A program made the translations under genes and the position numbers. The notes under the pieces were generated by a model. The model saw only the letters and a list, made by a program, of their open reading frames with translations, did not search any database and had not been told where the DNA came from. DNA of 64,000 nt from the NCBI GenBank assembly GCA_965261975.1, contig CBDHEC010000003.1:1-64000 (forward strand), read 5' to 3'. Of the stretch, positions 2,691-30,488 are shown one piece after another. The DNA is from Alphaproteobacteria bacterium (GTDB taxonomy: Bacteria; Pseudomonadota; Alphaproteobacteria; UBA6615). The stretch's first letter is position 1. The number at the start of each line of letters is the position of its first letter.

Positions 2691-4879
2691 GTGATACAGC
2701 AGCCCGCCCCGAAGACCTGATGGGTCTGAGCGACGATGAGTACGACACGATCCTCGAAATACTCGGCCGCACGCCGAATTTCACCGAGCTCGGCATTTTC
2801 TCCGTGATGTGGTCGGAGCATTGCTCCTACAAATCCTCGAAATTCTGGCTCAAGACACTTCCGACCGAGGGCCCGCAGGTCATCCAGGGCCCCGGCGAGA
2901 ACGCGGGGGTCATCGATATCGGCGACGGTTTGGCGGCGATCTTCAAGATCGAGAGCCACAACCACCCGAGCTTCATCGAACCCTATCAGGGTGCCGCTAC
3001 CGGCGTGGGCGGCATCATGCGCGACGTATTCACCATGGGTGCGCGCCCCATCGCCAACATGAACGCGCTGCGCTTCGGTGCGCCCGATCATCCCAAGACC
3101 CGGCACCTGGTGGACGGCGTCATCGCGGGGATCGGCGGCTACGGCAATTGCATGGGCGTGCCCACGGTCGGCGGCGAGGTGAATTTCGATCCGGCCTATA
3201 ACGGCAACATCCTGGTCAACACCATGACGGTCGGGACCGCGAACACCGACAAGATTTTCTACTCCGCCGCGGCGGGCGTCGGCCTGCCGGTGGTCTATGT
3301 CGGCGCCAAGACCGGGCGCGACGGCATTCACGGCGCCACCATGGCGTCGGCCGAGTTCGATGACGATTCCGACGAGAAACGCCCCACGGTGCAAGTCGGC
3401 GATCCGTTTACCGAAAAACTGCTGCTCGAGGCCTGCCTGGAACTGATGGCGACCGACGCGATCATCGCGATACAGGATATGGGGGCCGCGGGCCTGACGT
3501 CCTCGTCGGTCGAGATGGCGAGCAAGGGCGAAGTTGGTATCACCCTGACCCTCGACGCAGTCCCCCAACGCGAAACCGAGATGACGCCCTATGAGATGAT
3601 GCTGTCGGAGAGCCAGGAGCGGATGCTCATGGTGCTGAAGCCCGGGCGCGAGGAGATGGCGCGGGCCATTTTCGACAAATGGGAACTCGACCTCGCGGTG
3701 ATCGGCGAGACGAACGACAGCCAGCGGCTCGTGCTGAACTGGCAAGGCGAAGTTGCCGCGGACATCCCGGTGCCGCCCTTGGTGGCCGCAGCGCCCGAGT
3801 ATGAGCGCCCGTGGACGGCGACCCCGCCCCGCGCGGTCCTCGACCCCGACGAGATCGCAGCCCCCGACGATCTCGCCGGCGCCTTGCTGCAACTGGTTGC
3901 AAGCCCCGATCTGTGTTCGCGGCGTTGGGTCTGGGAGCAATACGACCACATGGTCATGGGTGACACGGTCGGGCGGCCGGGCAGCGATGCCGCACTTGTG
4001 CGGGTGCACGGCACCAACAAGGCATTGGCGATCAGCACAGACTGCACCCCGCGCTATGTGGTCGCCAACCCGGTCGAGGGCGGCATGCAAGCCGTTGCAG
4101 AGTCCTGGCGCAATGTTACGGCCGTCGGCGCGACGCCGCTGGCCGTGACCAACAATCTGAACTTCGGCAACCCCGAACGCCCCGAGATCATGGGCCAGCT
4201 GGTCGGGGCCGTTCAGGGTATGGGGGCCGCGTGCGAGGCCCTCGATGCGCCGGTCGTCTCGGGCAATGTCTCGCTTTACAACGAGACGAATGGCGAGGCG
4301 ATCCTGCCGACCCCGGTGATCGGTTGCGTCGGGTTGATCGATGACCTCACGAAAGCGCCCGGCGCGGCCTTCGTGGACGACAAGGACGCCGTGTTCGTGG
4401 TCGGCGAGACATCGGGTTGGCTCGGTTGCTCGATTTATCAGCGCGATCTGGCCGGCGGCGCGGCCGGCGCGCCGCCGCCGGTCGACCTGGAGACGGAACG
4501 ACGCAACGGCGATTTCGTGCGCCAGTCGATCCAAGCCGGCCGGATCAACGCCTGTCATGACATCAGCGACGGCGGAATCGCGGTCGCCCTGGCGGAAATG
4601 GCCATCGCCGGCGAAATCGGTGCGGAAATTACCGCAACACCGGAGATTCCGGCCCACGCCTGGGCCTTCGGCGAAGACCAGGCGCGTTACGTCATCACCT
4701 GCGCCGACGCATCCGAGTTCGTCGCCGCCGCCGAGGATGCCGGTATCCCTGTAGAGCATATCGGTACTGTCGGCGGGGCTGCGTTGACACTCCCGGAGAC
4801 GAAGCCTATATCCGTCGCGGCGCTACGCGATGCACATTCGCGCTGGTTGCCGGCGTATATGGCATCGCGCGAGAACTGA
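2687..4879 (+). CDS. purL: FGAM synthase subunit PurL
   Basis: [23 protein letters not shown] and SESQERM motifs; ATGA overlap with purQ stop. Confidence 0.97.
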
Positions 4880-4918
4880 TCTGGCGAGATACCGCATTCA
4901 CCCCGGGGAGTTGCCCAA

Positions 4919-5158
4919 ATGCCGATGGCGGCCAGCGAGATCGAGAGCTTGATCAAGGAAGCGTTGCCGGATGCCGAAATCCGGATCGATGATCTGCGCG
5001 GCGACGGCGACCATTATCTGGCCAATGTCGTTTCATCGGCGTTCGCAGGAAAATCCCGGGTCCAGCAACATCAGATGGTTTACGAGGCTCTCCAGGGCCG
5101 CATGGGTGGCGAGCTACATGCGCTCGCGCTTCAAACGTCTGCCCCCGAGAACAGCTAA
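4919..5158 (+). CDS. bolA: BolA family protein
   Basis: GDGDH...F.GKSRVQQHQMVY...LHAL motif, next to grxD. Confidence 0.92.
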   Translation: MPMAASEIESLIKEALPDAEIRIDDLRGDGDHYLANVVSSAFAGKSRVQQHQMVYEALQGRMGGELHALALQTSAPENS

Positions 5159-5179
5159 CCAAATTATTCGGAGTCCGAT

Positions 5180-5518
5180 ATGACCGATAGCCCTGTGCAA
5201 GAACGCATCAAGACCGACATCGACCAGAATGAAGTGATGCTCTTCATGAAAGGTACGCCGGTGTTCCCGCAATGCGGTTTCTCGGCCGCCGTGGTCCAGA
5301 TTCTGAACCATATGGGTGTCAAATTCGGCAGCGCAGACGTGCTCGTCGATCCGGCCATCCGGGACGGCATCAAGGAATTCACCAACTGGCCGACCGTCCC
5401 GCAGCTTTATGTAAAGGGAGAGTTTGTCGGCGGTTGCGACATCATCCGCGAGATGTTCGAAACCGGCGAGCTTGAGCAGATGTTCCAGGAAAAGGGTGTC
5501 GCGCTCGAAGCTGCCTGA
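5180..5518 (+). CDS. grxD: Monothiol glutaredoxin Grx4
   Basis: CGFS active site; WPTVPQLYVKGEFVGGCD. Confidence 0.96.
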   Translation: MTDSPVQERIKTDIDQNEVMLFMKGTPVFPQCGFSAAVVQILNHMGVKFGSADVLVDPAIRDGIKEFTNWPTVPQLYVKGEFVGGCDIIREMFETGELEQMFQEKGVALEAA

Positions 5519-5539
5519 TCCACGACCTTCAGCTAATGT

Positions 5540-5569
5540 AAACGGGCCGCGAATTTCGCGGCCCGTTTT
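5540..5569 (+). terminator. Rho-independent terminator after grxD
   Basis: AAACGGGCCGCGA/TCGCGGCCCGTTT stem followed by T-run. Confidence 0.75.
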
Positions 5570-5571
5570 GT

Positions 5572-6516
5572 TTGCACCCTCCCAACGGAGCGCCTCCCCT
5601 GCCGCAGCTTCCCACATTCCAGAATGACCGCCGCCAGTTCTCTGGCGCGGAATCCGCCGGGTTGGCTATGGGCGTCGGCGCATTTCTGGTCTGGAGCTTC
5701 ACCCCCTTCTACTTCGAGGCGGTCCAGTCGCTCGGCGTGATCGAGATCGTCGCCCATCGGTTCCTCTGGTGCATTCCGTTCATGGCCCTGGTCCTCACGG
5801 TCGCACGCCAGTGGCCCGACCTGTTCGCCGCGTTGCGCAACCGGCGGGTCCTGGCCACCCTGTTCCTGACCGCCGCGCTGATCAGCGTGAACTGGAGCAT
5901 GTTTATCTTCACCGTTGTCACCGATCAGCTCCTCGCTTCAAGCCTCGGTTACTTCCTGAGCCCGTTGGTCAACGTGCTGCTGGGCTTCGTCGTCCTGCGT
6001 GAACGCCTGTCGAGCGGCCAGCGCATCGCCGTGGCACTGGCGGCCATCGGCGTCGGCATCCAGATCGTGGCGTTCGGCCAGGTACCGTGGATTGCCCTTG
6101 TCATCGCCTTCTCGTTCGGCAGTTACGGCCTGTTGCGCAAGACCGTCGCGGCCGGCCCCGCGGTGGGCCTGTTCGTCGAATGCACGGTCATCGCACCCAT
6201 CGCCGCGGCCTACCTCATCTGGTTCGCGGCCCAGGGCACCGGCGCGTTCGGACAGTCCGGGCTCGGGTTTGACGCGTTGATTGCGTTCTCCGGTGTCGTT
6301 ACCGGGCTGCCACTGCTCATGTTCGCCGCCGCGGCGCGCCGGGTCCAGCTGGCGACGATCGGGCTGATGCAATACATCGCGCCGTCCTTCTACCTTGTCT
6401 TCGCGCTGACCTTCTTTCCCCAGCCCTTCGGCACCGCCGAGATCGTCACCTTTGCCTTCATCTGGCTGGCACTGATCATCTACACCGTCGAGATTTTTCG
6501 AACGCGCATCGTCTGA
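5572..6516 (+). CDS. rarD: EamA/RarD family transporter (start uncertain)
   Basis: About 10 TM segments; EIVAHR, SLGYFLSPL, YGLLRK and GLMQYIAP motifs. Confidence 0.88.
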   Translation: MHPPNGAPPLPQLPTFQNDRRQFSGAESAGLAMGVGAFLVWSFTPFYFEAVQSLGVIEIVAHRFLWCIPFMALVLTVARQWPDLFAALRNRRVLATLFLTAALISVNWSMFIFTVVTDQLLASSLGYFLSPLVNVLLGFVVLRERLSSGQRIAVALAAIGVGIQIVAFGQVPWIALVIAFSFGSYGLLRKTVAAGPAVGLFVECTVIAPIAAAYLIWFAAQGTGAFGQSGLGFDALIAFSGVVTGLPLLMFAAAARRVQLATIGLMQYIAPSFYLVFALTFFPQPFGTAEIVTFAFIWLALIIYTVEIFRTRIV

Positions 6517-6604
6517 ATGCCGATGTGACCGCCTGACGCGTTGAATCCCCCGGTCACAGGTCGCAAGATGGGGCAAGGATGACAAAATAACCGGAGACGA
6601 CACG

Positions 6605-7168
6605 ATGGCTATGTACTGGCTCGACCATGTGAATATTCGCACCGCCAAGCTCGACGAGATGTCCGCCTTCTACGAGAATGTCCTCGGGCTCAAGCGTGGC
6701 AAACGGCCGCTTAGTTTCGATTTCGGCGGCGCCTGGCACTATTGCGGCAGCAACGCGATCGTTCACCTCGTGGAGACGTCCAAGAAGATCAAGTCCGGCG
6801 AGGCCCAGGTCGAGCATTTCGCCCTGCGCGCCGGCGGCAGCATGAAGACGTTTCAGCGCAAAATGCGCGACCATGACGCGCCCTACAATGTGGTGCCGTT
6901 GCTCGAGATAAACATGGTTCAGGTCAACGTGTTCGACCCGGACGGCAACAAGGTCGAGGTCCAGTTCGCCGCCACCGGGGACGATGACATGGAGCCCTTC
7001 CCGGGCAAGAGCGCAGCATCGAAGCGCCGCTTCAAGAAGGGTGCGGAACTCAACAAAACCGGCATCATGGCGCTCAAGAAGTCCAAGGCGAAGACATCCA
7101 AGACCAACAAGAAACTGGGCGGGCCGAAACCAATCCGCGCCCCGAGAAAGCGCCCGCGCAATGCCTAA
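6605..7168 (+). CDS. VOC/glyoxalase family protein with Lys-rich C-terminal tail
   Basis: LDHVNIR...FYENVLGL...EHFA...DPDGNKVE; GGAG RBS. Confidence 0.85.
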   Translation: MAMYWLDHVNIRTAKLDEMSAFYENVLGLKRGKRPLSFDFGGAWHYCGSNAIVHLVETSKKIKSGEAQVEHFALRAGGSMKTFQRKMRDHDAPYNVVPLLEINMVQVNVFDPDGNKVEVQFAATGDDDMEPFPGKSAASKRRFKKGAELNKTGIMALKKSKAKTSKTNKKLGGPKPIRAPRKRPRNA

Positions 7169-7272
7169 AAGCGCGCCAACGAAGACGTGAATATGAGAAT
7201 ATTGAAATGTAACGGAATAATACGCTATCCAAGGTGTTAAACAGGTAGTGATTCACGTCGGAGTGCCGAATT

Positions 7273-7485
7273 ATGTTTCGTACAAAGCTTCTCTCCTCGC
7301 GGCTCGGTCGCGTGCTGGCGGTCACGGCGCTGCTTGCTGCCGCAAGCCTGCATCACCCTGGCGACGCGGCCGCCGAGACAATTGCCGCCGGCAAGGTCAG
7401 CCATCGCTTCTCTGAGAGCCATTACTCGACCCGCCCGGAGATCGATGATGTCCTGACCGTCCTGCGCAAGGATGCAACCAGTTAA
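7273..7485 (+). CDS. Small hypothetical exported protein
   Basis: GGAG RBS, signal-peptide-like N-terminus, AT-rich upstream region, terminator downstream. Confidence 0.5.
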   Translation: MFRTKLLSSRLGRVLAVTALLAAASLHHPGDAAAETIAAGKVSHRFSESHYSTRPEIDDVLTVLRKDATS

Positions 7486-23116: not shown

Positions 23117-24600
23117 GCGGATTCCGGGGAAGATGGCTTTGCGACCTTCCGCCAACGCCAGAGCACCAGAAGCAACAGGCCGACGATCTCGAGGCCGACC
23201 GGCCCGACGGCATTCAGGCCCGAGAGCACACCCGGCAGAAAGAACGACATGATCAGGGTTTCGTTCATTCCCAATGCGCTCAGCAGCATGGGCACCACCG
23301 CGTAGAGCACAATCAGATAGATCATTGCCGCGAGGTCGGAGCGCACCGGCCAGCGCCCGATGTTCAGCGCAAGCACAAGCAAACAGTCACGGAACAGAAA
23401 CAGGCTCACCGAGAACATGAATGTCGTCGGTGCAAGCCGGAACTGGTCGTTCTCCTGCAGGCCCGCCCAGAAATTGCCCGACAGCATCTGTGTGCTGTCG
23501 CCGAGCAACACCGACAACATCAGGACGACAAACAACAGAATGAGAGATTGCACCCAGAAGGGAATGCGCTCGGAGACTTCACCCCAGCGTCGCGCTTTCA
23601 ACGCGCCGACCAGCGCGCGGAAATTACCCAGCGTTTTTGCCTCGAAGAAGACGGCCAGATATGTCAGCGGAACAAAGACACTCCACATGATCAGGAGGTA
23701 GAGGAAGAGTGCCCCGGAAGACGTGCTCGCCTGATCGGCAATGACATCGAACCCCGCGAAATAGGCGCCCGCATAGAGCATGAAAGCAAACCACGCCCAG
23801 CGCCGGCTGCGGAACTGCAGTACCCCGCGCAGTTCGCGAATGATGCCGAGCACCACCCACGCCAGGAACGCGGTGAAGCTCAGCGCCATGAATGCCGTCA
23901 GGTTGAATTCACCCCGATACCAGCGCACCGTCTGGTCGGTCAGCACGCTCAGGTTGATCTCGCTGGGCAGGTTGTCGAGCATTTCTCCCAGGCTCGCGAT
24001 CCGGAAGAACTGAAGCAGGGCCAGGGCGACGACGATCCCTGCAACCTGGCACAAGGTAACCGAAATTCCCTTCGAGGGCCGGCGACGGCGCAGCAGCGCA
24101 ATCGCGACGAACATCGAGACCGCAAGTGCGAGGAACGCCGCCAGCAGGTCGCGCAGTGCCGACGCCAGGATCGCCGAAGTACCACCCGAGACGAAGGGCA
24201 GCAGGGATGCCGTATCGCCACTCTCATCGGGAAAGTAGAGAAGATGCAGGTGGGCGACGATCTTCACCAGGAGCAGCAGTGCAGCCCCATAGAGAACAAA
24301 AGCCGGCGCACCGAAAAATTTGCCGGCGAACAACGCCAATCCCGAGAGGGCCGACAGGCGCTGGCCGTCCCAGGTGTTGTTCACCAGTTCGGAATCGAAA
24401 CTGCCGGCGACCTTGCGCGTGCCCCAAAGCAGGATGATGATCCAAAAACCGGCGCCCGCCACGCCACCCACCATCTCCGGGCCGGCACCCGCCCACATGG
24501 CGGCCGTCGCGAGTGCGATAATCACAGGCATCGCGATCAGCCGCTGAGCGGAGAACTCGATCAGGAGGTTGCGCTTGAATTCCGGGTTCACGCCGCTCAC
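23113..24600 (-). CDS. Multi-TM membrane protein, probable ABC exporter permease
   Basis: Many TM segments; 4-nt overlap with the upstream ABC ATPase. Confidence 0.7.
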   Translation of the reverse strand: MSGVNPEFKRNLLIEFSAQRLIAMPVIIALATAAMWAGAGPEMVGGVAGAGFWIIILLWGTRKVAGSFDSELVNNTWDGQRLSALSGLALFAGKFFGAPAFVLYGAALLLLVKIVAHLHLLYFPDESGDTASLLPFVSGGTSAILASALRDLLAAFLALAVSMFVAIALLRRRRPSKGISVTLCQVAGIVVALALLQFFRIASLGEMLDNLPSEINLSVLTDQTVRWYRGEFNLTAFMALSFTAFLAWVVLGIIRELRGVLQFRSRRWAWFAFMLYAGAYFAGFDVIADQASTSSGALFLYLLIMWSVFVPLTYLAVFFEAKTLGNFRALVGALKARRWGEVSERIPFWVQSLILLFVVLMLSVLLGDSTQMLSGNFWAGLQENDQFRLAPTTFMFSVSLFLFRDCLLVLALNIGRWPVRSDLAAMIYLIVLYAVVPMLLSALGMNETLIMSFFLPGVLSGLNAVGPVGLEIVGLLLLVLWRWRKVAKPSSPESA

Positions 24601-25541
24601 TCCCGATCGCCGAAATACACGTCGGAGACGGACTGGCGCGTATCGGCGAACTCGGTCACCGGCAAGCCGGCGGTCACGAGGTCACGCAGGAGGTTCTGCC
24701 GGGCATCCCCGGTCTCGGCGATCACGCAGGTCGCCGAAACCTCGTCCACATCGAGCACGTCCACGTCCGACCGCGCGGCCAGCATTTCCTGTAACCGCAC
24801 ATCGGGCCCTGAAAGCGCTATCCGGTAGGTCGCAGTCTTGGTCTGTGCCTGACCGCCGCCGCCCAATGGCCGGAACGCGTCGATCTGGCCATCGCGTACG
24901 ATCAGCACGTGGGAGGAATAGTCCTCCAGCTCGGACAGAATGTGCGAGGACACGATGAAAGTCATTCCGTCCTGGTTGAGCGTGCGGATCGTTTCCGACA
25001 AGTGCCGGCGCGCATCGGGGTCGAGCCCGGAAGCCGGTTCATCGAGCAGCGCGATCCGTGGCTTGTGAATAATTGCCTGGGCGATGGCCACCTTCTGCCG
25101 GTTGCCGCGCGAGAGCTCGCCCACTCGGCGATCGAGCTGCCCCGACAAGCCCAGATGTTCGGCCGCCCAAAGCATTTGAGGCCGCTGGTCCTCGCGCGGC
25201 AGCTTCTTGGCCCCGGCGTGGAACAGCAGTGATTGCTCAACGGTCAATTCATCATAGAGGCCGAAGAAGTCGGGCAGAAAGCCGACATTGCGATGTACCT
25301 CGCGCGGGTTCTCGCGCACCTCGACCCCGGCGACCCGGATCGTCCCCATGGTCGGATGCTCGAGGGCGCAGATGCTGCGCATCAAAGTGGTCTTGCCCGC
25401 ACCGTTCGGGCCCACGAGGGCGACGACCATGCCGGCCTCGATATCGAACGTCACATCGGACAGGGCGCGGACGGTGTCATAGTCGAATACGACATCGGCA
25501 ACCGAAACCAGCGTCTCGTCAGTATCCGGCGGGATACTCAT
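24597..25541 (-). CDS. ABC transporter ATP-binding protein
   Basis: GPNGAGKTT, LSRGNRQK, LLDEP, SSH; its ATG overlaps the displaced original glmS stop (ATGA). Confidence 0.93.
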   Translation of the reverse strand: MSIPPDTDETLVSVADVVFDYDTVRALSDVTFDIEAGMVVALVGPNGAGKTTLMRSICALEHPTMGTIRVAGVEVRENPREVHRNVGFLPDFFGLYDELTVEQSLLFHAGAKKLPREDQRPQMLWAAEHLGLSGQLDRRVGELSRGNRQKVAIAQAIIHKPRIALLDEPASGLDPDARRHLSETIRTLNQDGMTFIVSSHILSELEDYSSHVLIVRDGQIDAFRPLGGGGQAQTKTATYRIALSGPDVRLQEMLAARSDVDVLDVDEVSATCVIAETGDARQNLLRDLVTAGLPVTEFADTRQSVSDVYFGDRE

Positions 25542-25576
25542 TCCACCGTGGTGGACTTTGTTCCAACGTACGGGTT
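25538..25576 (-). mobile_element. attR-like junction: P arm + AC crossover + displaced original glmS 3' end
   Basis: Minus strand reads AACCCGTACGTTGGAACAAAGTCCACC-AC-GGTGGAATGA; ACG GTG GAA TGA encodes T-V-E-stop. Confidence 0.85.
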
Positions 25577-25586
25577 TCAAGTGAGT

Positions 25587-26111
25587 TTAATCCTCTGTCA
25601 CTGAAGTTTTTTTTAATCCATCATGCTTCGATGAGAACGAACCTGAGACGGAGTGTGTGTCGATACCCTCGAGAACCTCATACCCCTTCGACTTCTGAGA
25701 TGGGTCTAGGTACTCAAGTTGGTCACCGACAATTGGGAATTTGAACTTCACATCTATGCGGTGGTTCACCCCATCGGGTTCAAGGTGGACGATCAATTGA
25801 TCAACCACTCCCTCGATGTACTCTTTCCGATCCTCTAGTGAGAGGTGGTCTACGTCGTCGTACATCTCGTGGAACTTACCAACCCAGTCGATCCATCGTT
25901 TCTGACTGATCGTTTCCTGTACTCGCAAACGAACCTGTTCCAGTTCGCTCCTCGAGGACTCTAGTTCGTCTCGAAGGTTCTTCTTCACCTGTCGATAGAG
26001 TTTCCCGTCCATCCTTTCCAACATGCGATCAGTCTCGATCTTTGCGATGGACTCCTCGATCTTCTGAATACCCTTCTTGATCCGTGTCTCGACTGTCGAT
26101 GGTTTCTCCAA
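25587..26111 (-). pseudogene. C-terminal fragment of a large serine recombinase
   Basis: Coiled-coil region followed by LSLEDRKEYIEGVVDQLIV..IDVKFKFP, resembling an LSR C-terminus; no catalytic domain; ends next to the P arm. Confidence 0.7.
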
Positions 26112-26210
26112 AGACTACGGAAGTCGAAAATAATGCGGTCAGGAATATGGGTGCGAAATATCTGATCATTCGGAGGGAGTGTTAGGTGTCCCTAAGTCAG
26201 CAAACCCAAA

Positions 26211-26250
26211 CAAGAAAAGACCCTGCAAACTTGGGGGTAAACAGGGTCTT
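26211..26250 (-). terminator. Possible terminator after cargo gene
   Basis: AAGACCCTG/CAGGGTCTT inverted repeat followed by a T-rich tract on the minus strand. Confidence 0.4.
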
Positions 26251-26310
26251 CTCCGCATTCATGTCCGCGTGACAATCCTCGTTACATCAGGAAGTCCGCA
26301 AGGTTTAAAA

Positions 26311-26706
26311 CTATTTCAATTTGCACACCCAAACCATTTCCATAGGTTCGCTGCCAGTTGAATCTTTAAGGGTATGGTCAATCCGGCAAGTGTCCCCGTC
26401 TTTCTTGAAATCCCAAGTCCCCACAATGGTCCATCCACTGCCAAAACCATTCAGGCGGATTTTATTATCTCCAGCGCTTGTAATCGTTCCCCGATAACTA
26501 TTTTGCATCTGAGTAAGTCGCCATTTTTTGCCCTTTTTTTCTAATTTGAACGGGATATTACTATAATGACCAGTTCGCTTATAACGGACATCAGCGCCTT
26601 CCATCATTTCCATTATCTGTTCAAAAGTGAATTTTTCGTTGGCAAACGATGGCGCCTGAAACGCGGTAAGAAAAAACATAAAAATGAGGGTAATCGTCCA
26701 GTTCAT
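26311..26706 (-). CDS. Hypothetical exported protein (element cargo)
   Basis: AT-rich ORF, signal peptide MNWTITLIFMFFLTAFQAPSFA, two Cys near the C-terminus. Confidence 0.7.
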   Translation of the reverse strand: MNWTITLIFMFFLTAFQAPSFANEKFTFEQIMEMMEGADVRYKRTGHYSNIPFKLEKKGKKWRLTQMQNSYRGTITSAGDNKIRLNGFGSGWTIVGTWDFKKDGDTCRIDHTLKDSTGSEPMEMVWVCKLK

Positions 26707-26954
26707 CTTTAACTTATCCTTTTTTCTATGACGATCGAACAGGATCGACGGGGGTTTTTCCCTTAGCATTGTGGTAATTCGACGATAAGATTAACAAGGA
26801 ATACGGGTTGGAAAAGACTAAATTGTTTGAGGTCGTAGGGTGTCGTTGTTGTCTCCATTTTCTGTGTTTCCTTTCGAGATCGAACAAGACTCCAGGCATC
26901 CTGTTCGTATCCCTATTTAGACAACGACAACCCCTCGATCTGACCTTCCTCAAA

Positions 26955-27164
26955 TTAATCTGAGTTGATGTATTTCCTCTCGACGTACTCGATCCGAAGA
27001 GGACTCGTGATCTCAAACCGATCCTCTGGAAGTGCATTCAATCGTTCATCCCTGATCCTCTTCTTCTTGAGGATCGAGAAGACATGCGTGTTGAAGAACC
27101 TCTTACCTCGAGGGGTCGTGTACCCATTCTCGTTTAACCACTGCGCGATCTTCCGATACCCCAT
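26955..27164 (-). CDS. Small stand-alone recombinase-domain (HTH-like) protein, copy B; frame open further upstream to the att arm
   Basis: GMGYRKIAQWLNENGYTTPRGKRF...VFSIL resembles the PF07508 recombinase-domain pattern. Confidence 0.65.
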   Translation of the reverse strand: MGYRKIAQWLNENGYTTPRGKRFFNTHVFSILKKKRIRDERLNALPEDRFEITSPLRIEYVERKYINSD

Positions 27165-27318
27165 TCCTTCGTCATGAAGTCTCTGGATGAGGTCATGCAG
27201 TTCCGATTGATAGTCGGAATATGGTGCAGGATTGGAGAGTCGAGAGGACGTTAGAGTCGCAGTGAAACAGAGGTAATATTCAACGTCAGAACCCGTACGT
27301 TGGAAACTACTCCACGGT
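27010..27318. repeat. Direct repeat copy B (matches 28367-28676), ending in an internal att P' arm + GT
   Basis: 27010-27284 is identical to 28367-28641; similarity stops exactly after GT at 27317-27318. Confidence 0.95.
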
Positions 27319-27421
27319 AATGGGTATCGCTATCTCGTGGGGTTGATCACCTGAGCGACTCCAAGAAGAACGGCAGCAGTCAGGCAGAGTGTAGCGGTCT
27401 GCTCTCACATATCGAGGTCAT

Positions 27422-28159
27422 TCATTTCATATATTTTTTAAAAAATTCTACGGTTCTTTTGTGCGAGTCTTTATCTGCTTCCTCATTATATTCCCATCTC
27501 GCGCTATTTTTCCTATCCCACGCATGATCTGCTTCTGAATAAACATGGGTCTCTAGTTTTCCGCCCCGCTCTCTAACTTCGTCCCACGCTTCTTCAACAA
27601 ATTTCATCCGCTGAGTACCGTCCTCTTCACCATGTAGTGACAATATCGGAGAACTGGATTTCGAAAAATATTTCATCGGGTAGGGGTTTGTGATTTCTCT
27701 ACCAAAGTTCGCCTTCCAAACTCCATAATGAGATACGCCAGCATTAACCTTTGACTGTCCTGTTAAATAACCGACCCAAAATCCTCCATTAGAAAATCCG
27801 ACAGCAAAAACATTCTTTCTATTTATTTTGGTGTCATTTTTCATGAGGTCGACAACCTCTGCTAGTTCCTTCTCAATACTCTCGCGATAAGTGCTGAACG
27901 TCTCCATTCTCGTTTTTGGAGTCAGACCGTGTCGTTTAAAAAAATCAGGAGCATAAACAGCAAATCCGTCATCAACATATCGTTGGATGAGGTGTTTTAC
28001 TGTTTTGAATCCCCCACTGGTATGTAACGCAATGACCGCAGGAAATGGACCAGAACCATTAGGGTAATATTTTTCATGATAAATTGGTTCTGCTTGAGAG
28101 TTGCTGGGAAAAATAAAAAGAGCACTTAAACCAAGTACAACCTGGCAGATATTTCTCAT
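27422..28159 (-). CDS. Dienelactone hydrolase-like alpha/beta hydrolase, exported (element cargo)
   Basis: Signal peptide; GFSNGG nucleophile elbow, HGEEDG, ADHAW. Confidence 0.85.
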   Translation of the reverse strand: MRNICQVVLGLSALFIFPSNSQAEPIYHEKYYPNGSGPFPAVIALHTSGGFKTVKHLIQRYVDDGFAVYAPDFFKRHGLTPKTRMETFSTYRESIEKELAEVVDLMKNDTKINRKNVFAVGFSNGGFWVGYLTGQSKVNAGVSHYGVWKANFGREITNPYPMKYFSKSSSPILSLHGEEDGTQRMKFVEEAWDEVRERGGKLETHVYSEADHAWDRKNSARWEYNEEADKDSHKRTVEFFKKYMK

Positions 28160-28311
28160 CCTATTCCCTTTCGTTGTGGTAAGTAATAATCGTGCTGTAA
28201 TAAAAAAATACACTCTCCTTATATTCTTGAAGCACTGCAATCATCAAACTGGGTGTTGCAGTCGGTATGCTCACATGAAAATTCTGACAGAGAATATTCG
28301 GAATTGGTAGA

Positions 28312-28521
28312 TCATACTTGGTTAATCAATTTCCGCTCGATGTACTCGATCCTCAAAGGACTAGTAATCTCAAACCGATCCTCTGGAAGTGCATTCAATC
28401 GTTCATCCCTGATCCTCTTCTTCTTGAGGATCGAGAAGACATGCGTGTTGAAGAACCTCTTACCTCGAGGGGTCGTGTACCCATTCTCGTTTAACCACTG
28501 CGCGATCTTCCGATACCCCAT
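28312..28521 (-). CDS. Small stand-alone recombinase-domain protein, copy A; may start at ATG 28654 if one base is an error
   Basis: Near-identical to copy B; frame open upstream through EYYLCFTATL... Confidence 0.65.
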   Translation of the reverse strand: MGYRKIAQWLNENGYTTPRGKRFFNTHVFSILKKKRIRDERLNALPEDRFEITSPLRIEYIERKLINQV

Positions 28522-28664
28522 TCCTTCGTCATGAAGTCTCTGGATGAGGTCATGCAGTTCCGATTGATAGTCGGAATATGGTGCAGGATTGGAGAGTCGA
28601 GAGGACGTTAGAGTCGCAGTGAAACAGAGGTAATATTCAACCTCTGGAACCCATCCGTTGGAAA

Positions 28665-28676
<12 letters not shown>
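28367..28676. repeat. Direct repeat copy A, including attL-like junction and replacement glmS end
   Basis: P' arm at 28648-28674 (AACCCATCCGTTGGAAACTACTCCACG) followed by GT. Confidence 0.95.

Positions 28677-30488
<1,812 letters not shown>

Follow-up and report, generated by a model that had tools for sequence, protein, structure and literature searches.

A Serine Recombinase Family That Enters the End of glmS and Probably Carries attP within Its Own Recombinase Gene: A Decayed Tandem Remnant and Its Relatives

We describe an island of about 3.1 kb (28676..25548) that lies between glmS and an ABC transporter ATPase gene in a 64,000-nt stretch of DNA (hereafter, the window) from an alphaproteobacterium of the UBA6615 lineage (Alphaproteobacteria bacterium, assembly GCA_965261975.1, completeness 94.6%; contig CBDHEC010000003.1, positions 1–64,000). 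This island, now immobile, is what is left of two or more integrative elements that relied on large serine recombinases (LSRs), and we regard it as very probable that a decayed LSR element was inserted at an AC dinucleotide of glmS. In the family to which the remnant belongs, the attachment site of the element (attP) probably lies within the LSR gene, and we hold these two statements jointly with good confidence as well. A further proposal, to which we attach slightly more doubt than belief, is that this aquatic glmS-targeting family encodes an enzyme across its own attP, that the excised circle alone makes the long form of this enzyme, mostly through slippage at a run of nine A (A9), and that the recombination state thereby sets the form of the enzyme. 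The downstream part of the long form would be a start-less 112-aa helix-turn-helix (HTH) open reading frame (ORF) beside the attachment site arm, labeled RecFrag here. The original prediction of an LSR element at this place was correct on the element itself; it overlooked the tandem structure, the second conserved ORF (RecFrag), and the position of attP within the recombinase gene.

An LSR Element in the Last Codons of glmS

In the window, as in all relatives, the glmS product ends in PRNLAKSVTVE, and the last four codons of the gene (ACC GTG GAG TAG, 28676..28665) are a Thr-Val-Glu-stop supplied by the element; the arm that directly follows this stop begins TTTCCAACG on the minus strand. The displaced original glmS end, GGTGGAATGA, lies at the far junction and contains the ATG of the ABC gene. 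All junction sequences quoted in the original prediction were found on the minus strand, and both the rebuilt glmS end and the preserved original end that it had described can be read in the window. A repeat search identified a 26-nt inverted pair (25551–25576 and 27290–27315, 85% complementary), and the AC lies 11 nt from either outer repeat, making it the center of symmetry; the two inverted arms described earlier are thus borne out, and the earlier count of 20 matches in 27 applies to the glmS-proximal arm copy, which differs from the internal copy at two of 30 positions. At attL, the base before the AC is glmS-type and the base after it is element-type, and at attR this is reversed, which places the exchange within the AC. 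As in other LSR elements, attP presents imperfect inverted arms around a 2-bp crossover, and attB is unlike attP. The insertion site is within the reading frame, four codons before the stop, and no target duplication was seen at the junctions, which is not Tn7-like; insertion 3′ of the glmS stop and tns genes among the scanned ORFs are likewise absent from the window, and a Pfam scan of insert ORFs found no Tns-like or transposase domains. Measured in windows, G+C content is 0.38–0.51 within 25550..28699, with flanks of 0.60–0.68 from 28550 up and 0.62–0.65 just below 25550.

Among relatives (40 genomes were searched and their glmS ends then read), an empty site was identified in G022, a genome of the same family and another genus. 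Here, the glmS end reads GTG ACC GTT GAA TGA and is joined directly to the ABC gene, whose ATG overlaps the stop, as the original prediction had anticipated for an empty site; the arrangement equals the outer side of attR in the window, and the two ABC proteins share 61% identity across 310 aa. The overlap of glmS stop and ABC start (ATGA) is present at 25538–25541 of the window and at 1384–1390 of the G022 locus (L016); in the empty site, it suggests coupled expression of the two genes, which in the window are separated by 3.1 kb of foreign DNA. The same glmS/arm junction as in the window is present in two more genomes of the genus (G004 and G007). G+C-rich, native-looking DNA with other neighbors follows the glmS stop in G006, G009, and G011, and likewise G+C-rich, native-looking DNA follows it in G002, where the contig soon ends; A+T-rich DNA of other kinds follows it in G001, G003, G008, and G010. 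Several att types of one superfamily seem to use a single site; among the 11 genomes of the genus in which a glmS end can be seen, six or seven would then be occupied. Distant RecFrag-like ORFs were observed after the glmS stop in G008 (L006, 1198–1446) and G001 (L011, 3272–3736), and the first bases after the stop are the same in G003 (L013) and in L024 after its attR.

The arm and about 300 bp next to it are present twice in the insert (26964–27263 and 28321–28620, 97% identical), so the insert consists of two modules. Sequencing runs were compared as contigs only, RNA runs included (parts left uncovered in runs X2, X4, and X21 carry no meaning), and contig depth in the source run was 16.4 on the repeat as compared to 6.6 and 8.6 beside it; this doubling fits two real copies rather than an assembly artefact. 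The strong G+C contrast, together with the frequent breaks of relatives' contigs inside the element, would be expected if the insert or its duplication were an assembly chimera of foreign low-G+C DNA; yet the two junctions are exact, complement each other, and retain the former gene end, the region is tiled by source-run contigs, and numerous separate assemblies, complete chromosomes among them, show this junction as well, so that we give a chimera next to no credence.

The ORF at 26114..25587 is 40% identical (E 1e-42) to residues 399–544 of a 558-aa LSR encoded in G010 and 92% identical to the end of P0001, a 574-aa LSR, in agreement with the recombinase homology that had been suspected for this region. 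Both full-length proteins presented Resolvase, Recombinase, and Zn_ribbon_recom domains. The G010 LSR is located in a glmS island, in the same place and orientation as the window remnant and reading towards an arm, and is thus a full-length LSR next to glmS of the kind that the original prediction had called for. The resolvase catalytic domain (PF00239) is also present in other relatives at the same site (P0001 and others, L088), followed by PF07508, the zinc ribbon PF13408, and a coiled coil, and the remnant aligns to the coiled-coil/C-terminal part. The window LSR has lost its first ~400 codons, with the catalytic, recombinase, and zinc-ribbon parts deleted, and only the last 175 codons are left. 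The ORF itself had no Pfam match, tblastn identified no other LSR piece in the window, and the whole source assembly contained no PF00239 domain; a DNA search and the PF00239 search identified no further copy of the element and no full LSR in this genome. With PF00239 missing from both remnant and assembly, the window holds the remnant of an LSR element and not a working member, and the decay stated in the original prediction stands.

Occurrence of the Junction in Genomes and Metagenomes

A species collection (one genome per species), scanned for exact matches to a degenerate junction pattern, yielded 17 stretches, of which 15 are located at a glmS end encoding PRNLAKSVTVE and two (L024 and L028) are internal array junctions. 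The hosts include Rhodospirillaceae, Rhodospirillales, Thalassospiraceae, Magnetovibrio, and gammaproteobacteria, among them two complete Arenicellales chromosomes. Metagenome contigs scanned with an alignment of 12 LSRs gave 80 loci chosen by similarity alone (41–72% identical in the best tblastn segment), 79 of them with a C-terminal match; an AC followed by a Thr-Val-Glu-stop motif was found at most 300 nt behind the LSR gene in 59 of these 79, as compared to a chance expectation of about 0.002 per locus (our own arithmetic, from the information content of the pattern). Together with the junction in 15 species genomes, this bears out the claim of a Tn7-independent, glmS-targeting LSR family. 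A glmS gene was within reach in 19 of the 80 loci; 10 are co-oriented and present the order glmS, arm, ..., LSR, as in the window, and nine are convergent, with the LSR running towards the glmS end and its 3′ end abutting the arm that carries the Thr-Val-Glu-stop mimic. Eight metagenome junctions score 13–16 of 17 on outer-arm symmetry.

Another mechanism of insertion (a Tn7-like transposon, a tyrosine integrase, or homologous recombination of a foreign glmS end), with the LSR pieces as mere passengers, appears very improbable to us. It could call on glmS being the classic target of Tn7 and on a 200-aa tyrosine recombinase (PF00589, E 1e-27, at 4461–5063) in the complete element L088; set against it are the junction inside the reading frame with no target duplication, the inverted arms centered on the AC, the lack of Tns-like domains in the scanned insert ORFs, and the glmS-end motif behind LSRs that had been chosen without regard to it. 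An LSR element at the AC is thus our preferred reading. L088, a complete 9-kb element, contains the LSR, this short tyrosine recombinase, an AAA ATPase, and unassigned genes; the tyrosine recombinase may resolve multimers of the circular form.

Arrays were identified in the window, G010, L024, L028, L065, L088, L113, and by comparison of G041 with G042. In the G010 array, an element whose LSR is intact is followed by a point at which its own arm meets a window-type arm; at the right end of this island, the ABC gene does not adjoin. When G041, G042, and G043 were compared, boundaries between modules became visible, as did an insertion of ~1.4 kb with terminal inverted repeats (L039 of G041, oriented 3950–5345) that interrupts the Arenicellales glmS island and is absent from G042 and G043. 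No P arm was found at the right ends of the Arenicellales loci at up to eight mismatches, and the true attR was not identified there. In L024, a run of N lies between the glmS end and the next junction (~1570–1580), and an ORF with an FSGGGG motif, resembling a cytosine-5 DNA methyltransferase, stands behind the arm in the place of RecFrag (~1700–2200). The LSR match spans ~2.3 kb instead of 1.65 kb in 11 of the 80 metagenome loci (L063, L069, L082, L084, L087, L098, L104, L105, L108, L113, and L114), and in L084 the gene is divided between two ORFs (3913–4566 and 4606–6333); the recombinase gene may have received an insertion in these loci.

A Probable attP within the Recombinase Gene

In integrated copies, the LSR body and RecFrag lie at opposite ends of the element. 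In P0006 (699 aa), the LSR body runs past its usual end, through the P and P′ arms, and into a complete RecFrag, and the LSR body and RecFrag are also contained in one ORF in P0015, which belongs to a different LSR lineage, and in L052. Seven further fused representatives presented an N-terminal match to the LSR body with E values from 1e-22 to 9e-4 (P0109, P0142, P0127, P0158, P0106, P0055, and P0124). At least ten ORFs, with several att types, thus cross attP from the LSR body into RecFrag. A word-index search with RecFrag found only P0015, and one with the P0006 extension found only P0006; the others were found by a full HMM search. Comparison of the profiles of two alignments (A3 and A1) gave a match to the P0006 extension only, P0006 itself being a row of A1. 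One estuary metagenome contig joins 25607 to 27323, i.e., the LSR end to the P′ arm. The AlphaFold2 model of P0006 predicts a domain at ~595–696 (block-mean pLDDT 76–97 over 601–690), preceded by a linker (553–591) with pLDDT < 50 (block means 29–41 over 551–590). This linker, predicted to be disordered, is specified by DNA that spans the slip site and both arms; disorder would suit a stretch whose nucleotide sequence is under constraint. These observations make an attP within the LSR gene the probable arrangement in this family: the site lies within an ORF whose C-terminus changes on integration, as in other intragenic attP systems, here with serine rather than tyrosine chemistry.

The Conserved Domain beside the Arm

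RecFrag was identified beside the arm in 16 of the 17 stretches from the species collection (42–100% protein identity in the aligned stretch, several hits being short and cut by contig ends), and its profile matched 717 clusters at E ≤ 1e-10 among 1.84 billion representatives. A match to PF07508 was found in 17 of 28 aligned members. The copies in the window present no ATG, GTG, or TTG across the first ~52 conserved codons, and the copy of L028 has no Met at all. Differences, counted by codon position, number 1099/905/1720 before the first ATG and 1510/1107/2517 after it; the same excess at third positions on both sides indicates that the stretch before the ATG is coding. In 19 of 20 such arms, exactly one of the two candidate frames can be read without a stop from the crossover to RecFrag (frame a in nine and frame b in ten), the spacers of the two classes differing by one base. 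AlphaFold2 predicts a beta hairpin, three helices, and a second beta hairpin for RecFrag, with a mean pLDDT of 87. Conservation, profile matches, codon pattern, open frame, and predicted fold together indicate that RecFrag is not decaying junk.

The best structural matches of the RecFrag model are generic HTH DNA-binding domains (Z 5–7.2), among them the recombinase domain of a serine integrase (Z 6.6 over 69 residues) and Tn3 resolvase (Z 5.4), which is no proof of kinship. Foldseek returned nothing from the PDB at E ≤ 0.001, and a sequence search of solved structures matched designed repeat proteins alone. We also considered whether RecFrag is a piece of the recombinase domain of the same LSR; BLASTP gave no significant match to the G010 LSR or P0001, and RecFrag appears to be a separate, more distant copy of the recombinase-domain fold. 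A second low-G+C island in G010 (L015, G010:C5:3040000-3054000, ~4400–7450), at the end of a gene judged by eye to be a candidate rpsI, is bounded by a 14-bp direct repeat (CGCTTCGAGAACTG) and contains an IS3-type orfA remnant, no integrase, and a RecFrag ORF copy (91% identical) without a glmS-type arm.

The Putative Slip Site and the Reading Frames

Where the 0 frame of the LSR ends ahead of RecFrag, an A9 run almost always directly precedes the stop. Among 70 loci in which the longest A run at the LSR 3′ end was determined, it was A9 in 47, A8 in three, A10 in one, and A5–A6 in 19; in 568,174 nt of LSR loci, 48 A9 runs were counted on the LSR strand, and no T9. The A9 run occurs in two codon phases, which argues that it is conserved as DNA and not merely as Lys-Lys-Lys codons. 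In the high-G+C locus L061, CCA_AAA_AAG stands in the place of A9, with RecFrag in the −1 frame. The family thus presents a conserved homopolymer or heptamer site along with conserved coding in an overlapping −1 frame, as do genes expressed through −1 frameshifting or transcriptional slippage.

The frame of RecFrag follows that of the LSR where the two arms belong together. All eight junctions with cognate arms (symmetry 13–16 of 17; L045, L046, L047, L048, L053, L073, L088, and L092) have RecFrag in the −1 frame of the LSR, open from before the run, as compared to one of six junctions with mismatched arms (symmetry 5–9 of 17). Frame class c of the LSR goes with class a of RecFrag, and class a of the LSR with class b of RecFrag; since both combinations occur, the two sides of attP have changed together. 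Among elements with both ends on a contig, the −1 frame of the LSR equals the frame of its own RecFrag in nine of 11 rows, two of which (L088 and L089) are near-identical; of the other two, L065 is a direct match in the 0 frame and L082 (A8) does not fit. The convergent loci L071 and L075 present the −1 relation when their ends are read together. In the window, the −1 frame is open as a 33-aa ORF (25620..25519) that spans P arm and crossover; it corresponds there to frame b, in which the module 2 RecFrag is also read. Contigs of the RNA-library run X21 contain the LSR with one more A, continuing upstream as a full-length gene. A stem-loop in the attP arms was considered as a frameshift stimulator and rejected, as the arms start ~30–36 nt behind the run, too far for classical spacing.

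The heptamer A_AAA_AAG is known as a signal that shifts ribosomes, not as one that causes slippage during replication. As described in PMC1088944, transcription tends to slip on runs of nine A, a property exploited by IS elements and by dnaX of Thermus, and dnaX of Escherichia coli relies on ribosomal frameshifting. On balance, we lean slightly towards a long form made through the A run. The run could instead be a phase-variation switch at the DNA level, in which slipped-strand mispairing turns the long form on or off heritably with no recoding; we consider this unlikely. Run length does differ among close relatives (A8 in the window and one more A in X21; A8 in L082 and A9 in L084), L051 has A8 and L050 has A10, and direct in-frame fusions exist, all of which speak for a switch; a free-running switch should, however, spread more widely than exactly nine A in 47 of 70 loci, and the frameshifting heptamer that replaces the run in L061 would not serve it.

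The main rival to an enzyme encoded across attP is that RecFrag is an independent small gene, e.g., for a regulator or a directionality factor, with its own, sometimes non-canonical start, the −1 overlap being gene packing and the fusions accidents or array junctions. We consider this reading improbable, if somewhat less so than phase variation. Several observations speak for it and so weigh against an enzyme encoded across attP: among the 150 best representatives, most RecFrag relatives are called as separate proteins of 75–215 aa; possible start codons were seen in L046 (an ATG in frame, upstream of the P arm) and in L073 (Met codons that follow the P′ arm); in 14 of 15 LSR–RecFrag junctions, the 0 frame of the LSR ends ahead of RecFrag, and a fusion there would need a frameshift; and the other G010 island carries its copy without an arm. 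Opposed to an independent gene are the ~52 conserved codons without a usual start in the window and the copy without Met in L028, the unchanged third-position excess before the first ATG, the ten ORFs in which a BLAST-supported or near-complete LSR body runs into RecFrag with several att types, the covariation of the RecFrag frame with the cognate LSR and not with mismatched neighbors, and the nine-A run kept in two codon phases.

Further points count against the proposal that the long form is encoded across attP and made by slippage. All of its functional steps are read from sequence, and the structural matches of RecFrag (Z 5–7) are to generic HTH domains. The 19 LSR ends with only A5–A6 and one locus without a run lack the A9 site, L075 has only a weak G_AAA_AAG site, and the window LSR has A8 instead of A9 and is truncated. 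The frame rule has exceptions in L082, where RecFrag is in neither the −1 nor the 0 frame, and in L043, L049, L051, L065, and L113. As to the insertion itself, the sole clear empty site is in another genus, and the empty glmS ends within the genus adjoin other neighbors. The metagenome loci are related to each other, and counts over them overstate the number of independent events. With these points taken into account, an enzyme encoded across attP is still the reading that we develop below.

Proposed Model and Implications

The target used throughout the family, the mimicry of the gene end, the arrays, the layout of the two coding parts, and their frame relations can be read directly from the sequences; the production and role of a long enzyme are proposed. 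In the model that we propose, a symmetric attP would recombine with the glmS end at the AC of a Thr codon, four codons before the stop. The P′ arm brings its own Thr-Val-Glu-stop, by which glmS stays whole, and the old glmS end is displaced to the far junction. As attL retains a glmS half-site along with the mimic, further elements could enter there and give rise to tandem arrays. In intact relatives, the LSR body (catalytic domain, recombinase domain, zinc ribbon, and coiled coil) is encoded before the P arm, a linker by the arms themselves, and the ~110-aa HTH domain of RecFrag behind the P′ arm, in frame in some lineages and in the −1 frame in most, the latter with a conserved A9 or A_AAA_AAG ahead of RecFrag. 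With LSR body and RecFrag on opposite sides of attP, only the excised circle or a matching array junction could encode the long enzyme, which the circle may express by transcriptional slippage or by −1 ribosomal frameshifting. Integration would sever RecFrag and leave a start-less domain beside glmS. The extra DNA-binding domain may serve integration, through recognition of the target or of attP, and its loss on insertion may change or lock the enzyme; we find this role for RecFrag conceivable and rather doubtful. The island in the window is fixed, and two cargo genes remain.

Serine integrases are prized for their short sites and one-directional reaction, and the control of direction and target is an active question. 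If the model holds, the family would possess a built-in switch of directionality or target recognition without a separate directionality factor, and the last DNA-binding domain of the enzyme would exist only in the excised state, a control principle that can be tested. It would also explain the pile-up of orphaned domains behind glmS: start-less short ORFs annotated as "recombinase family" right behind glmS would be such domains, marking old insertions. The glmS end is among the most conserved bacterial gene ends, and this family lands there, and repairs it, in both alpha- and gammaproteobacteria. Besides Tn7, there is thus another way into glmS, independent of that transposon, from which integration tools for a broad range of hosts might be drawn. 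A full-text literature search, with supplements and most subscription journals outside its scope, found no glmS-targeting serine recombinase element and no attP-spanning serine recombinase gene with a frameshift site.

Tandem Modules and Cargo of the Window

The features of the island and its two neighbors are listed in Table 1. Before Met-41 of its stretch, RecFrag copy 1 offers no start codon, and no stop interrupts frame a between this copy and the crossover; copy 2 can likewise be read back to the crossover, in frame b and with a spacer 1 nt shorter. The N-terminus of the module 1 hydrolase looks like a signal peptide by eye; secreted alpha/beta hydrolases after an LSR junction were also observed in L084 and L118. 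A contig of the estuary metagenome run X2 skips 27399..28279, which contains the hydrolase gene, and has 15 other bases in its place, suggesting that the hydrolase is a variable cassette in otherwise similar modules. The flank to the left of the AC at the internal junction is neither glmS nor a cognate P arm; compared with the module's own P′ arm and with glmS, this right end of module 1 matched neither, and we read the flank as a putative arm of a third element left by a deletion.

Table 1. Position and supporting evidence of features in and around the glmS island of the window
Feature	Position	Strand	Evidence
glmS, glutamine-fructose-6-phosphate aminotransferase, 607 aa	28665..30488	-	Pfam SIS 6.5e-50, GATase_6 1.2e-22
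attL of module 1: crossover AC (28676..28675), replacement codons, then P′ arm TTTCCAACGGATGGGTT...	28647..28676	-	Junction also in G004, G007, and 15 species genomes
RecFrag copy 1, 112 aa, putative detached LSR C-terminal HTH domain	28315..28650	-	PF07508 positions 8–53 of 102, E 1.6e-7
Module 1 cargo: dienelactone-hydrolase-family alpha/beta hydrolase	27422..28165	-	PF01738 E 8.2e-28
Internal junction: AC (27318..27317) and P′ arm of module 2	27289..27318	-	Repeat families, arm comparison
RecFrag copy 2, protein 94% identical to copy 1	26958..27293	-	ORF and frame analysis
Module 2 cargo: 131-aa protein, hydrophobic N-terminus	26311..26706	-	No Pfam match below E 0.03
LSR gene 3′ remnant, 175 codons: coiled-coil and C-terminal region	25587..26114	-	Homology to G010 LSR and P0001
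A8 run at the place of the family's A9 slip site	25607..25614	-	0 frame stops six codons on, TAA 25589..25587
attR: P arm 25576..25550, crossover AC 25549..25548, original glmS end GGTGGAATGA to 25538	25538..25576	-	Inverted repeat, empty site in G022
ABC transporter ATPase, original downstream neighbor of glmS; start overlaps old glmS stop	24597..25541	-	PF00005 E 2.8e-33

Comparison with Known Systems

Serine integrase elements include phiC31, Bxb1, A118, and SPbeta with SprA. The glmS family shares with them an enzyme composed of Resolvase, Recombinase, zinc ribbon, and coiled coil, a short attP with inverted arms and a 2-bp core, and the use of one specific chromosomal site with no duplication. 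It differs in its target, the four final codons of glmS, for which attP itself brings substitutes, in an attP that appears to lie inside the recombinase gene with an extra C-terminal HTH domain beyond it, and in the conservation of an A9 run or of A_AAA_AAG. A directionality factor encoded separately was not identified in the family. The SCCmec and other SCC elements, which use CcrAB at the 3′ end of rlmH/orfX, likewise enter the end of a housekeeping gene that stays intact and build tandem composite islands bounded by repeated sites, whereas they use two Ccr subunits and differ in target gene and clade; we know of no split recombinase gene in SCC elements. Tn7, directed by TnsD to attTn7, shares with the glmS family the use of the conserved glmS end as a safe harbor in many hosts. 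It is, however, a transposon with the genes tnsABCDE that duplicates 5 bp on insertion and lands beyond the stop codon, whereas the crossover of the glmS family lies inside the ORF, leaves no duplication, and would be catalyzed by an LSR.

An attachment site within an ORF whose C-terminus differs between excised and integrated states is also found in Mx8 (intP/intX), in SSV1-type integrases, and in the integration-dependent immunity of mycobacteriophages. As these systems involve tyrosine recombinases or repressors, the likeness is one of logic only; in the glmS family, a serine recombinase would lose a folded DNA-binding domain, and most members would need a −1 shift in addition. The closest parallels to the slip site are the A_AAA_AAG of IS3 and IS1, the 9A slippage of IS elements, and dnaX of Thermus and E. 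coli (PMC1088944), in which a nine-A run or a heptamer joins two overlapping frames into a longer enzyme, with both solutions occurring within one family, as here; the words recombinase and integrase have no occurrences in that paper. Compared with these recoded genes, the downstream frame of the glmS family lies beyond a recombination site and would be linked to the upstream frame only when the element is excised.

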